The notes below the pieces were generated by a model that was given only the letters and a program-made list of their open reading frames with translations, was not told the DNA's origin and ran no database searches. From positions 108,624,001 through 108,688,000 of the forward strand of contig OZ024744.1 of assembly GCA_964016885.1 (NCBI GenBank): a DNA stretch of 64,000 nucleotides. The letters run 5' to 3'. Of this stretch, positions 6,144 through 64,000 are shown piece after piece; positions within the stretch are counted from its first letter, which is position 1; each line of letters opens with the position of its first letter. The stretch is from Eledone cirrhosa. Lineage: Eukaryota. Made by a program: the position numbers and the translations under genes.

Positions 6144-6523
6144 ATTTATTAAAATAACAGATTAAAGTTTAAGCAAAGAATCGCTGCTTACTTTATTCTT
6201 AACTCTGAAGCCGAGAATCATTCGGTTTCCTAATTAGAATTTTAGTCTACGACTACAGTTATACCATTTACGTGGTTTTGTCTTTGCGTGTAATTGTTTT
6301 TCACCGCTCCAAATAATGACGTATTATATTCGTTGTTTCCCATTCTTTGCCAGGGAAAGTTTCCACGAACCAAAGTATCGTCTTCCTGTCTTCCTCTGGT
6401 TGCAACGTTTTTTGAAATATTTACTTCTGCGTTCACAGATTGACTTTGTTAGTTTCTGAAGATCCTGTTAAGGGTGAAAGCAGCGATTCTTTGCTTAAAC
6501 TTTAATCTGTTATTTTAATAAAT
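6144..6523 (+). mobile_element. Short PLE-type insertion (family A) with 46-bp inverted termini
   Basis: 6144-6189 is the reverse complement of 6478-6523; contains an HHR; partial second copy at 23785-23890. Confidence 0.75.
6451..6501 (+). ncRNA. Type I hammerhead ribozyme (family A)
   Basis: AGTTT CTGAAGA TCCTGTTAAGGGT GAAA GCA..TGC TT AAACT; stems I and III pair; triplet CUU. Confidence 0.75.
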
Positions 6524-6629
6524 ATTTGCTCTACGGTTCTTATATATTTGATATATATTTATCCTTATCGAGCCCTCTTTGGATTTTAGTCTTCAAATTT
6601 ATTATTATTACTATATATATATATAGTAA

Positions 6630-6735
6630 TAATTGTTTCTACTTTAGGCACAAGGCCAGCAACTACCCAGTGCATTACTGGTACTTTATTTTATCGACCC
6701 GGTAGGATGAAAGGCAAAGTCAACCTCGGCGGGAT
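6630..6735 (-). mobile_element. tRNA-derived SINE, 3' fragment
   Basis: Reverse complement of the SINE body at 9730-9836. Confidence 0.85.
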
Positions 6736-6751
6736 TATATATAGTAATAAT

Positions 6752-7085
6752 GAAACGAAATTTCATTTCCCACTCTTAGTACGGCTGTTACTTAAATATA
6801 AGTATGTACACGTACATACATATATGTATACAGACATACAGTAGTATGTATATATATACATACATGAACACATATATATATATATATATGTACGTATGGA
6901 TTCACCGAACATTTATTATAATGCTCGGTCTGTTTGTAAGCAAACATCCCGTATTAAGCCGTAGTGTCTAGCAACCCTCGTTGCTCGTTTGTTCAACACT
7001 GACAAAGGAACGCTGTACTAGTTTCAAGCTTATTAGCTATCGTCAGCAACGTATACCTTCCTGCCAGATTGTTGAACGTTTGAAA
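6752..7085 (-). mobile_element. HHR-bearing repeat (family H)
   Basis: Homologous to 63300-63633 and 63720-63963. Confidence 0.75.
7011..7051 (-). ncRNA. Minimal type I hammerhead ribozyme (family H)
   Basis: Minus strand CGTTG CTGACGA tAGCTaataAGCTt GAAA CTAG TA CAGCG; palindromic stem III ACTAGT. Confidence 0.8.
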
Positions 7086-7430
7086 GACTAATTAGTTGGA
7101 GTGAAACTTATGTAACTAAGTTCATTATTATAATTTTCTTATTTTACGTCTTTCATATAATTGTTCTACATTTTTGTATTGAACCACAAAGTTTCTAAAA
7201 CAAAACCTATATCTTGCTAGCATAAGTATACTTCTGTATTATATGTTGGTAGATATACTAATTCTGTATTATATGTTGGTAGATATACTAATTCTTTATA
7301 TATATATATATATATATATATATATATATATATATATATATATATATATATATATATATATATATATATATATATATATATATATAAGCAAAGAGATATT
7401 TAATTTGTTGGTAATCCAACAAATTTAATT

Positions 7431-7640
7431 AGAGAAGACGTAGTTCAAATTTTATCAGAGAAGAACTTTTTGCACTTTGAAATAGTTCCATGAAGATAGA
7501 AAATATTTGCCGAAAATTATTAAGTTAACGAAATTATAGAGAATTTAGTATTTTTGTTGTTGAGAAGAGATGATGCTTATGCGTGCTAGATTATAAAGGA
7601 AAAGTTCTTCTCTAATAAAATTTTAACTACGTCTTTTTCT
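7431..7640. repeat. Degenerate ~40-bp inverted repeats flanking a possible decayed HHR
   Basis: agagaagacgtagtt..gaagaactttt vs aaagttcttc..aactacgtctttttct. Confidence 0.6.
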
Positions 7641-7713
7641 TAACTATATATTGAAAATGTAAACACAATATCTTTCGTAACCCTTAAATTATAAAATAAT
7701 ATTTGAATTACTT

Positions 7714-8331
7714 ATATATTTAAAATAACAACATATATAATCACCAATAATATTTATATTTTTATTTATTTATATAAATAATTATATAAATGACCAGCTG
7801 TAATATAATAAGCTTAAATGTACTTACAACCTTAATTCTTCATAAAATCTAATTATAAGGATTATCTATATAATATTATAACTCATGATTTGGTTATATA
7901 CTTTAAATTTTTGGATTAGTATTCTACCACTTCAACACATTTTTAATTTGTAAATTTACTTTCTTCTTTCTTCTTCTTATATAAAGTATCCTAATAATTA
8001 TTTAAATTTACCTAGGTAAGAATACTGCCGCTAGGTAAATTTAAGTAATTATTAGGATACTTTATATAAGAAGAAGAAAGAAGAAAGTAAATTTACAAAT
8101 TAAAAATGTGTTGAAGTGGTAGAATACTAATCCAAAAATTTAAAGTATATAACCAAATCATGAGTTATAATATTATATAGATAATCCTTATAATTAGATT
8201 TTATGAAGAATTAAGGTTGTAAGTACATTTAAGCTTATTATATTACAGCTGGTCATTTATATAATTATTTATATAAATAAATAAAAATATAAATATTATT
8301 GGTGATTATATATGTTGTTATTTTAAATATA
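7714..8331. repeat. Near-perfect AT-rich palindrome, ~300-bp arms, ~15-nt spacer
   Basis: 7714-8016 is the reverse complement of 8031-8331. Confidence 0.9.
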
Positions 8332-60970: not shown

Positions 60971-61520
60971 ACGGCAGACAGAGACAACAGGCCTGCTGCT
61001 AAGAGTTCCCGGCATACATTAGCTACTGCTGCCAAGAGCTCAGGCTGGGTAAAAGCAGCCTTCAGATATAACCCCTCTGAGGATTACGGACTTCTGCCTA
61101 CAGTTTCCATTGGCAAAATGGATAATGTCTGTACATCCTGCAAGGCAATGAAGTGGCCAGGCGAGGCGCCTTCTATGTGGTGTGCAGGAGGTAAGGTGCA
61201 GCTAGAGGCATTGGCTGACCCGCCAGACGTTCTTCTGAATCTACTTACAGGTGACGACACTACGGCTACAACGTCCCGCCGTAACATGTGGAAACACAAC
61301 TCCTGTTTCATGATGACCTCCTTTGGTGTAGACAATAACAACACCAACAACAACGTGAACCCCAACAACAACGTTGTACCTGTGATGCGCGGGAAGTAAC
61401 TTTCACACATCTTAACAACAGAGGCAACGCTGGGTACTTCTGCTAGTATATATATATATATATAAAATAATTGAGTCAAATATGTAAACAGTGGCTTCGT
61501 TTATTATAAATTATAGATAT

Positions 61521-61575
61521 ACTGCTATATATATTTCGGTGACGGCCATCATTGGCTGTGACCTCTTCAGGCAGT
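61521..61575 (-). ncRNA. Type I hammerhead ribozyme
   Basis: Minus strand ACTGC CTGAAGA GGTCACAGCCA..TGGCCGTCACC GAAA TATATA TA GCAGT. Confidence 0.87.
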
Positions 61576-62650
61576 CCGAATTGGTGTTGGAAAGACAGGT
61601 ACACATGTTGTTGATGTGTGTTTTACTCCGTCAATACATCGATATGTCCAGCTCCTGGTTGTGTTGTTATTTCCTTGAGGAACTGGAATCATATGATTCC
61701 AGTTCCCCAAGGAATATGTATATATATATATGTGTGTGTGCATGTGTGTATATATATATGTGTGTTTGTGAGTGTGTATATGTGAGTATATGTGTATGAG
61801 TGTTTATATATGAGTGTGTGTACATGTATGAGGTGTGTACATACACACACATATATATGTATATCTGTGTGTATATATATATGTATATATGTATATATAT
61901 ATATGTATATATGTGGGTATAGGTGTGTACGTGTTGATATAGATATTTATAGATATGTGTGTATATGATTATGTGCACATGTGTAAATGTGTATTTAGGT
62001 TTGCATCTATTTGTGCGTATATATATTTTTGGTTGGATATCAATATAACTTACCTCTCTATATATAGTGTGGATATATGCACTTTGTAATCTATGAAATG
62101 TATGTGTTTTAACTATGCCAACATGTATTTATCTGAGTTTGATTATTTATACATAAACATACTTGATAGTATTTTAGAACATATCATACGCTGTATTATA
62201 CTAAGTGAAATTTACCACACAGTACTATAATGTGTTGGTTAAGTTGTATATTATCGCATTACTGTATTTCATTTTCTTACTATAATTTTCATCTTTTAAT
62301 ATACTATCTTTCCTAGCCATAACCTTAATTTATATTCACCTAAAAACTCAATACAACACTAATCAACATTTATTTTTACATTCCTTTTTAACTTCACTAT
62401 ACCAGATACATTCAACTATCAGTTTGACAATCCCTTTCCTCCTAATAGATTTTTATGCCAATTCTACTATTAACACCCTTCAACCATTCCTTTCAAAGGG
62501 TCATGACCTCAACTAAAGTGTATTACTTTTCATCTTAACACCATATGAAAAAAACAATTTGATTGGTTAGTTCTTCAACTTCCTCCGAACAAGAACATGA
62601 TACTAACATACTACTAATTCTGAATAAAATTATTATTGAATAAAATTATT

Positions 62651-62790
62651 ATTGCTTTTGAAAACAGCTGGTGATATGCATGTAAGTAAATATTCTCTTT
62701 ATCTGATATTTTGTAACTAAACTTACATAGATCAATAACGGAGTATAGCTACAATGTATTATCATCACCTAGAAACGATCGTAAAACAGT
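62651..62790 (+). ncRNA. Hammerhead ribozyme, U3-A8 core variant (UUGAAAA), decayed
   Basis: ATTGCTT TTGAAAA cag..GGTGAT..ATCACCta GAAA CGATCG TA AAACAGT; palindromic ACGATCGT. Confidence 0.62.
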
Positions 62791-63035
62791 GAAGTTTATC
62801 TCTAATGACTTGATTTTTTATTTCATTGTTTTAACTTATATATATATATATATGTGTGTGTGTGTGTGTGTGCGTGTGTGTGTGTGCGTGCGTGTGTATG
62901 TATATATATGTAAATATATGTATATATATATATATATATATATATATATATATATATATATATATATATATATATATATATATATATATCAGAAAAGAAA
63001 CGGAGAATCAGTGTTGCGACGAATAAAATGTATTA

Positions 63036-63120
63036 GACATATTACAATCGTTTCTCTGGGGCGACCAGCTCGAGGCACGATCGAAGCTGACTCTGAAATC
63101 GCAAGGTCGTCAGATACGTC
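63036..63120 (-). ncRNA. Type I hammerhead ribozyme
   Basis: Minus strand GACGTAT CTGACGA ..GCGA..CAGCT..AGCTG.TCGC.. GAAA CGATTG TA ATATGTC. Confidence 0.8.
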
Positions 63121-63291
63121 TCGATTCTACGAAGCAGAGTTTCCAAATGTCCAGTTACACCCGGGGCCCTCATATATATATATATATATATATATATATA
63201 TATAAGTGTGTGTGTGTGTGTGTGTGTGTGTGTGTGTGTGTGTGTGTGTGTGTGTGTGTGTGTGTGTGTGTGTGTGTGTGTGTGTATATTT

Positions 63292-64000
63292 ATAAATGGA
63301 AAAAATGAAATTTCATTTCTCCCTCTTAGTACGGCTGATACCTAAATATTAGTATGTATGTACATATACATACATATATGTATACAGACGTACAGTAGTA
63401 TGTATATATATACATACATGCACACATATATATATGTACGTATAGATTTACCGAACATTTATTATAATATTCGGTTTGTTTGAAAACAAACAGTCCGAAT
63501 TAAACCGTACAGTGTTCGGCCACCATCGTTGCCCTTTTGTTCAACACTAACAAAGGAACGATGAACTAGTTTCTAGCTTATTAGCTGTCACCAGCACCGT
63601 ATACCTTGCTGTCAGTCTATTGAACGTTTGAAATATATACTTTCCTTATGCATATTAACGACTGAGCAGCCTAATTTGCATATCGAGTGAGTTAGTCGGC
63701 CGGGCGTACCGAAAACGATAAATGGAAAAAATGAAATTTCATTTCTCACTCTTAGTACGGCTGATACTTAAATGTAAGTATGTACACGTACATACATATA
63801 TGTATACAGACGTACAGTAGTATGTATATACATACATACATGCACACATATATATATATATATGTACGTATGGGTTTACCGAACATTTATTATAATGTTC
63901 GGTTTGTTTGTAAACAAACAGCCCGAATTAAGCCGTACAGTGTTCGGCAACCATCGTTGCCCTTTTTTCCATTTATCGTTTTCGGTACGCCCTGCCGACT
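63292..64000 (-). mobile_element. Two family-H copies; mutated HHR (CUGGUGA) at 63559-63599; fold-back at the window end
   Basis: 63292-63540 matches 63718-63963; 63965-64000 is the reverse complement of 63694-63730. Confidence 0.8.

Follow-up and report, generated by a model that had tools for sequence, protein, structure and literature searches.

We have analysed a 64,000-nt stretch of the 3.0-Gb genome of Eledone cirrhosa (contig OZ024744.1, positions 108,624,001 to 108,688,000; hereafter the window), which carries nine head-to-head insertion units of Penelope-like elements (PLEs) and of non-coding repeats with a hammerhead ribozyme motif. One unit is a 6.5-kb PLE (P) and the others belong to families A, D (D1 and D2), E, F (F1 and F2), G and H. 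Every one of the nine has an antisense left arm and a sense right arm relative to the hammerhead core, as judged by a core scan of both strands. Each family has two 3′ ends, a short end (S) and a tail end (L), defined family by family and lying ~60-105 nt apart, and the two arms of an insertion almost always end one at S and the other at L.

Paired arms in the window and the elements they come from

Self-comparison of the masked window recovers inverted arms at the places listed in an earlier note on this DNA. The arms of P align between 37460-40333 and 40992-43864 (2874 bp, 99.7% identity), those of A between 6144-6189 and 6478-6523 (46 bp, 100%), those of E between 8598-8846 and 9068-9320 (94%) and those of G between 56854-57006 and 57330-57482 (98%). 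Family D folds back at 52056-52367 (99%) and 53900-54275 (95%), F at 53150-53479 (99%) and 54303-54336/54477-54510, and H has its fold point at 63963-63966. The note was largely right about these units: its geometry of minus-oriented left and plus-oriented right arms stands, whereas its account of ribozyme pairs, missing target-site duplications, spacers and boundaries has to be revised. D2 starts at 53810, F1 ends at ~53567, A at ~6611, and H runs from 63295 to ~64350. What had been taken for spacers of up to ~670 bp is 5′ sequence by which the longer arm exceeds the shorter, and the arms of P overlap by 4 nt (40330-40333).

The L-ended arm of P (37378-40333, minus strand) is 5′-truncated and has a ~80-nt tail, and its S-ended arm (40330-43867, plus) is nearly exactly one 3.53-kb unit, with its 5′ end a few bases beyond the S site of the preceding unit. 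The P open reading frame (ORF), taken from the first ATG, occupies 40499-42652 (plus) and is predicted to encode a reverse transcriptase (RT) with a C-terminal GIY-YIG-like endonuclease and Hydra-clade motifs; a putative type I hammerhead with a U3-A8 core variant, read from the sequence, lies at 43760-43854 (plus), with a predicted cut after 43849. The arms of D1 (52055-52215, minus, core 52089-52129; 52208-52379, plus, core 52294-52334) have 8 bases in common at the centre. The left outer end of this unit is atypical, being neither S nor L and lacking TA, and the right one is an S end with a small internal deletion. D2 pairs an L-ended arm (53810-54087, minus, core 53956-53997), whose tail at 53810-53899 had been left outside the unit, with an S-ended arm (54088-54279, plus, core 54178-54219). 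F1 has its S-ended arm at 53150-53315 (minus, core 53202-53248) and its L-ended arm, tail included, at 53314-53567 (plus, core 53381-53427). In F2 the S-ended arm (54298-54468, minus, core 54349-54395) is joined by an L-ended arm (54477-54607, plus) that begins downstream of the core and has no ribozyme.

The S-ended arm of A is only 46 bp long and holds no core (6144-6189, minus); the L-ended, tailed arm (6229-6611, plus, core 6456-6479) is the 3′ stub of an autonomous PLE. The S-ended arm of E (8598-8846, minus) starts within the core and therefore has no intact ribozyme, and its L-ended arm (8853-9404, plus, core 9065-9114) is approximately one 520-nt non-coding unit. G is abutted by a one-armed, L-ended D copy (D3, 56549-56803, minus), and consists of an S-ended arm without a core (56803-57006, minus) and an L-ended arm of its 690-nt non-coding unit (57007-57561, plus, hammerhead 57182-57259). 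The L-ended arm of H (63295-63966, minus) contains 1.6 copies of a ~430-nt unit and a mutated core; the S-ended arm starts at 63963 (plus), crosses the window end at 64000 and continues to ~64350, its intact core lying past that end. By eye, 15 of the 18 outer ends of the nine units touch a TA or TA/CA tract, and for these the earlier picture of 3′ ends facing outward into (TA)n holds; there is no TA tract at A-left and D1-left, and that at H-left is imperfect. Tail lengths do differ between arms, as had been remarked, and the S/L rule that lies behind the difference had been missed.

A ribozyme on each strand, as previously proposed, is seen in P, D1, D2 and F1, the four of the nine units with two intact-looking cores. 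It is not seen in A, E, G and F2, which have a single core each, or in H, with its left core mutated and its right core past the window end. The ribozyme faces outward only because of its place near the 3′ end. The candidate type I hammerheads near the 3′ ends of P, D, F and A were recognized as sequence motifs, from core motifs and folds. P has no standard core; its U3-A8 variant (43766-43772) has a three-way junction as minimum-energy fold, and this variant is known from Schistosoma PLEs (PMC4209133; here and below, statements on cited papers refer to the portions of their text available to us). Rfam gave no match to the P hammerhead, even in a narrow scan, and for the whole window only microsatellite-driven miRNA matches among 150 of its 356 matches; the narrow scan gave a Hammerhead_1 match under the gathering score at 57182-57259 in G (E 0.037, 18.8 bits). 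Weak folding z-scores were obtained for P (-0.40), F (-0.25), A (0.30), G (-0.52) and H (-1.23), and stronger ones for D, E and a further D-related copy, K; the ribozymes are therefore called from core motifs and stems. The sequence gives no sign of a role for ribozyme cleavage. A start of the short arms at the ribozyme cut site found no support in F and D, whose 5′-end hot spots, described below, lie 69 and ~80-92 nt upstream of the core.

Families A, D and F are not families of miniature inverted-repeat transposable elements (MITEs) but PLE 3′ stubs. Distant D arms at locus L020 enclose a PLE body that has RT and endonuclease frames, an 821-aa frame lies upstream of the F end at locus L081, and many of 30 A loci have a PLE endonuclease ~0.8-1.5 kb upstream in the same sense; it is because of these frames that we read the three families as 5′-truncated 3′ stubs of autonomous PLEs. 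Tandem or partial-tandem copies, an inverted 5′-truncated copy and a tail are present in all of P, D, F and A. The stop-to-stop frames of P and F (787 and 821 aa) contain YRDDG and VIY..YIG / LIY..YFG motifs. Pfam returned no match for the P ORF at E<=0.05, and the reading of P and F as a single ORF with RT and C-terminal GIY-YIG domain thus rests on motifs.

P contains the Hydra-clade motifs RLRWR, SDKTG, CNCPDRSIC, CNLCSEE and ..CKH, and F similar ones; both have a single Cys between the two GIY-YIG strands and lack CCHH, and the Hydra-clade feature of insertion into (TA)n is also found. P and F thus carry the defining motifs of this clade, an assignment made by motifs and not by tree. The clade (PMC8557442) shares the single ORF, RWx and DKT, the CxCX5C linker, the CxxC ahead of E and the CxH following N, the lack of CCHH, the hammerheads and the TA targeting. 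Unlike the <3 kb given for it, a soft feature that holds ‘generally’, the units here measure 3.5-4.2 kb (~3.53 kb in P, 3.73 kb in F and 4.17 kb in D), and P carries the U3-A8 core.

Families E, G and H form tandem wrap-round units without an ORF (periods ~520, 690 and 430 nt), and no same-sense PLE ORF was found directly upstream within 1.5-kb flanks at 30, 30 and 25 loci. In having a non-coding wrap-round unit and an apparent type I hammerhead they resemble non-LTR retrozymes (LTR, long terminal repeat; PMC7229834; bioRxiv 10.64898/2026.07.22.740005), which are likewise non-coding tandem type I hammerhead units and have been proposed to be PLE-mobilised. Unlike the retrozymes of these descriptions, the E, G and H units are 430-690 nt long, occur mostly in 1-2 copies and have the two-armed S/L signature; the word ‘inverted’ is absent from the available text of PMC7229834 and occurs only in a reference title in that of the bioRxiv paper.

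Ends, haplotypes and targets of the arms

A 38-nt F motif has 7277 exact matches in the genome and a 39-nt D motif 1416. For the first 100 exact matches of each in position order on contig C1, with neighbours taken within 10 kb, F neighbours are minus-plus in 33 cases, plus-minus in 1 and same-strand in 0, and D neighbours in 18, 1 and 1, an orientation bias beyond chance. The 40 listed P matches comprise 12 minus-plus pairs, 0 plus-minus pairs and two tandem arrays (by eye). The 100 F matches correspond to 67 consecutive insertions (tallied by eye): 33 have the motif on both arms, 21 more have a second arm too short or too diverged for the exact motif, 11 are one-armed, 1 has a 45-nt local fold-back only and 1 could not be classified. 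Two arms are therefore the usual outcome (54/67).

The S/L rule was assessed at 157 head-to-head junctions in the fetched A, D, E, F, G and P loci, after 19 loci that duplicated others or served as the F reference had been excluded. Outside the F set and 30 D matches the loci were drawn from best-hit lists, and this selection leans to young, intact copies. With 5 junctions at a fetch edge set aside, the remaining 152 comprise 129 L+S, 5 L+L and 3 S+S junctions and 15 with an unclassifiable end (a second short site of A near +107 being scored as S). L+S thus accounts for 129 of 137 classifiable junctions, where independent site choice predicts at most 50%, and H mostly agrees with the rule by eye. 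One-armed F copies end at S in 7 of 11 cases, showing that S is an end in its own right.

The 5′ reach of the arms varies. Among the 129 L+S pairs the S arm extends >30 nt further in 58 and the L arm further in 34, the two stopping within 30 nt of each other in 37. In the 58 non-nested pairs, of which the 6.5-kb PLE of the window is one, the S arm has 5′ sequence absent from the L arm and the L arm has a tail absent from the S arm; since each holds sequence that its partner lacks, neither arm was copied from the other. The short L arms of F (those starting downstream of -60) begin at +75 to +110 in 7 of 12 cases, S lying at ~+100 (p=0.001 against a uniform distribution). Five near-full-unit arms stop within ~20 nt of the S or L site of the preceding unit (P in the window, L020, L081, L094 and L097) and at least five others run on into tandem copies (L101, L103, L109, L277 and L280), so that stopping at the preceding unit's sites is suggestive only.

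Shorter arms start at 5′ hot spots. In F, 33 of the 43 arms truncated in the hot-spot stretch begin at -69, for which reason short F palindromes accumulate; in D, arms cluster near -80 to -92. These hot spots may mark the 5′ end of the RNA. A G precedes 14 of the 33 F hot-spot arms where the template has C, and about half of these can be explained by the partner arm; the extra G is only a hint of a capped RNA. A second cluster of F 5′ ends, near -1400 to -1445 (L085, L086, L092, L096 and L241), possibly reflects another RNA end or a strong structure. At 437198000-437214400 of contig C1 (L277, L278) more than five P units stand in tandem, and the array opens on its 5′ side with a short inverted L arm and closes on its 3′ side with an S end; this multimer obeys the S/L rule and therefore points to a circular or multimeric RNA.

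The two arms of a locus share a haplotype. Arms within a locus differ at 1/146 segregating-site comparisons in F, 13/336 in D and 0/25 in P, and arms from different loci at 1555/3925 (40%), 2060/13879 (15%) and 123/326 (38%), respectively; none of 2000 permutations gave an equally good concordance.

TA repeats adjoin 115/118 outer ends in F (58/60 S and 57/58 L), 88/96 in D and 34/34 in P, compared with 12-13% of random places. Because one-armed copies often have TA-rich repeats on their 5′ side too, the TA tract is likely the target and not a product of insertion. Where the tract is interrupted, a 12-17 bp direct repeat can be recognized at both ends in 8 of 89 pairs (mean 1.46 and maximum 5 in 200 shuffles), and the earlier statement that there are no target-site duplications does not hold. 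The lengths of these duplications are upper bounds, since bases shared with the RNA are included, and the ends here have 2-6 TA-type bases in common with it. At the centres, 18 of 24 insertion-free asymmetric joints overlap by at least 2 nt (null 18%), and several centres hold short repeated copies of nearby sequence; such overlaps and short repeats resemble microhomology-mediated end-joining. Many centres also sit on short palindromes.

The arrangement recurs in other sequence data. Short-read contigs of run X1 contain head-to-head joints with other truncation points, similar joints are found in X1 and X2, and in raw reads of two further samples S and L ends both run into TA. At locus L036, reads of four runs yielded no contig across both flanks and no empty allele.

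Routes to a two-armed insertion

We consider it probable that the fold-back is a single PLE insertion, formed by twin priming at S and L of one RNA and subsequent end-joining. A staggered cut in the TA repeat with 3′ overhangs would supply two primers facing each other; as expected for target-primed reverse transcription, the cDNA of the left end would then read antisense and that of the right end sense, producing the observed geometry and a target duplication. One 3′ end would prime at S and the other at L, ~60-100 nt downstream, on an element RNA held singly by a dimeric RT-endonuclease. The RT from S may lead and that from L follow, displacing or stalling on the RT ahead of it; each would stop at random or at the RNA 5′ end, and host end-joining would link both cDNA ends. 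If there is one RNA, two primers on it cannot share a site, which explains why S is paired with L, why the arms have one haplotype and why L arms stall at S. Short near-perfect palindromes would arise where both RTs run off one 5′ end ~70-90 nt upstream of the core, and the same machinery would mobilise the non-coding families E, G and H in trans. The earlier note had suggested that both cut ends prime and that the cDNAs are joined at their truncation points, a proposal that fits every genomic test run. For its spacerless cases, which it found to fit snap-back, a better explanation is that the two cDNAs ended at one and the same 5′ hot spot, and the MITE-like palindromes with a ribozyme per strand that it foresaw do arise, as a side product and not as a class. 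More generally, this may be the default, double-ended PLE reaction, in which one dimer and a single, possibly circular or capped, RNA with two fixed sites would yield tail, inverted pseudo-LTR and palindromes, and animal retrozymes would carry the two-site signal and ride along; we judge this wider proposal evenly poised.

In the twin priming of LINE-1 (long interspersed nuclear element 1) both break ends likewise prime cDNA and joining proceeds by microhomology. There, the second primer lies far upstream, so that the RNA is split into non-overlapping inverted parts. Unlike in LINE-1, the sites here are adjacent and fixed, so that one region is copied two times and forms an inverted repeat; instead of an inverted part that does not overlap the direct part, we find arms that are overlapping copies of the same 3′ region.

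The Poseidon element PAc of Anolis cuts and extends both DNA strands in vitro, using two adjacent internal RNA start sites that bracket the tail; a dimer is predicted and ribozyme cleavage is unnecessary (Frangieh et al. 2024, PMC11167929). By analogy, this behaviour fits the twin-priming model. The PAc study draws no connection between the two sites and inverted arms; its start sites are in an AC-rich loop that has no homology to the target, and the element belongs to a different clade (PMC11167929). The earlier note was correct that inverted 5′-truncated PLE copies are established, their geometry having been published (PMC3846280, PMC8557442, PMC4209133), together with the one-sided tail and TA targeting of head-to-head copies (PMC3846280, PMC8557442). 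Insertion units of endonuclease-positive (EN+) PLEs likewise have an inverted 5′-truncated copy at the 5′ end, most commonly head-to-head, a tail at one end and partial tandems, with target duplications of 8-10 bp in the rotifer and others concealed within microsatellites (Arkhipova et al. 2013, PMC3846280; Craig et al. 2021, PMC8557442). In those units the tail is 30-40 bp long and optional or often one-sided, compared with ~60-105 nt and one-sidedness in 129/137 junctions here. The same two papers state that the origin of the inverted repeats and tails is unresolved and propose antisense-template self-priming or endonuclease-mediated resolution; we found no two primers at tail boundaries in their available text. 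In Schistosoma, pairs of hammerheads on opposite strands have been reported at distances of 100-700 bp (Cervera and De la Pena 2014, PMC4209133), described in the text available to us without the orientation count, end analysis or mechanism given here.

A number of observations weigh against twin priming on one RNA. The evidence comes entirely from inserted DNA. Eight junctions break the S/L rule (5 L+L and 3 S+S), the longer arm need not be the S arm (in P the L arm reaches further in 8/14 pairs), and 11/67 consecutive F insertions are one-armed. Arm concordance is imperfect in D (13/336) and weaker in the older family E (16/84, against 424/1096 or 39% between loci), and two RNAs transcribed from a single active locus, gene conversion at a later time or snap-back are likewise compatible with a shared haplotype. 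Several centres (L086, L091, L093 and L255) contain local fold-backs of 30-250 nt, which indicates that self-priming does occur. Finally, the PAc study saw no difference in start site between the strands and no RNA-target homology, in an element of a different clade (PMC11167929), whereas the ends here have 2-6 TA-type bases in common with the RNA.

If two separate RNAs were held by an asymmetric dimer, both coming from a master locus active in that cell, then the orientation, non-nested arms, target duplications and junction microhomology would be explained equally well, and the few discordant arm pairs of D and E would be accommodated. We nevertheless regard this as unlikely, since F has at least 5 haplotypes in the sample, yet its arms differ at 1/146, and since two RNAs would leave unexplained both the stalling of L arms at S and the stops no more than 40 nt apart in 4 of ~15 long F pairs (by eye). 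Somewhat more doubtful still is one priming event followed by snap-back to a perfect palindrome, with the second end fixed at S by the endonuclease or by repair and a later, asymmetric central deletion that leaves the arms unequal. Identical haplotypes are expected from this route, many centres lie on short palindromes, and local fold-backs are observed; long palindromes are moreover prone to central deletions. Even so, a second, one-sided deletion would be required in 58/129 pairs, including copies that are 99-100% identical, and the route does not predict one-armed S-ended copies (7/11) or tail-only L arms that stop at S. As a general route, snap-back, the alternative named in the earlier note, is excluded by these 58 pairs, in which the untailed arm reaches >30 nt further upstream. 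S and L also match the in vitro RT start sites of a related element (PMC11167929), which tells against this route, to which the published idea of self-priming on an antisense template belongs (PMC3846280).

That the short fold-backs are DNA-transposon MITEs, or self-copying palindromes with fixed inverted termini, is highly improbable, even though many short F and D copies are nearly equal in size. The fixed, identical terminal inverted repeats (TIRs) and constant internal length that would mark such elements were not found: centres vary between copies, the termini differ (S versus L), and the arms of longer copies reach RT-endonuclease ORFs. The true fixed-TIR family at 32834-33571 behaves differently, its TIR starts being 513-542 bp apart in six pairs and 765 bp in one. 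The MITE reading is refuted for A, D, F and P, and E, G and H show no fixed centre. An artefact of assembly or library is the least probable explanation of all. Fold-back chimeras are a known artefact, and the perfect palindrome at 46616-46963 could be one; such an origin does not explain the combination of one S and one L end, the target duplications or the junction insertions, nor would it produce the differently truncated joints of the short-read contigs and the S/L ends running into TA in raw reads of two further samples.

Judging from the literature found, the geometry is known, and the strict S/L pairing with shared arm haplotype and the hidden duplications are new. No proposal of a two-start-site model for Penelope was found in titles and abstracts, a coverage that left out most subscription journals, and part of the S/L rule may already be visible in the insertion-end alignments of PMC8557442 and PMC11167929. 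Together, the near-strict rule and the shared haplotype supply a single-molecule prediction for the existing in vitro system (PMC11167929). They are also direct evidence, at the level of the genome, for the insertion of non-coding hammerhead repeats by PLE machinery. For annotation they carry a warning: in such genomes, palindromes that resemble MITEs are retrotransposon stubs by the thousand (one F motif alone has 7277 exact matches).

Other fold-backs and neighbouring repeats

The D-related PLE 3′ end K (7387-8597, no strand assigned; arm limits by eye) was outside the earlier note's list. It consists of a minus-strand tail-end remnant at the left and a sense arm with a core at 8498-8534, and includes an inversion at 7715-8331. 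The latter is a 617-bp palindrome (97-98%) in the 3′ untranslated region of K, with sense strands that point to the centre (tail-to-tail), and looks like a local inversion-duplication because the fold is absent from the other 18 fetched loci. At 46616-46963 a 100% perfect 348-bp palindrome is centred on a TA tract, with 75 bp of PLE ORF on each side; it is either a DNA-level fold-back or an assembly artefact. The repeat at 32834-33571 is likely a true MITE, with ~196-bp TIRs mostly 513-542 bp apart, located in GATA repeats and including a LINE-like fragment (526 first-look candidates). The claim of one geometry at all scales is thus valid for insertions by the elements described above and not for these three fold-backs.

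Further PLE sequence surrounds the units. Another PLE 3′ part lies at 43935-46690 (minus) and has a canonical hammerhead at 43978-44022 (Rfam Hammerhead_1, E 2.9e-5, below the gathering score); it faces the same TA/GT tract as P, so that independent insertions meet tail-to-tail across shared microsatellites. Two PLE endonuclease fragments (48435-48900 and 51420-52047, minus) are situated within TA/CA microsatellite fields. Just right of the window (L048:1360-3300), a long, decayed plus-strand PLE ORF related to D adjoins a tail-like stretch on the minus strand, to which it is joined. Five partial copies on both strands (35860-37320, 52481-52640, 54768-54969 and 55673-55915) represent a further repeat family, which has internal microsatellites and a hammerhead-like core, and solitary hammerhead-like cores face TA tracts at 51050-51115 (plus), which folds poorly (z 0.76), and 61534-61570 (minus). 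The remaining repeats are Helitron Rep fragments at 1400-4406 (minus; Pfam Helitron_like_N, E 1e-44), with related-looking pieces at 60690-61400, and decayed LINEs with Pfam RT and endonuclease matches at 10565-13807, 15248-17221 and 26119-31045, where 26119-27976 contains several nested inverted fragments.

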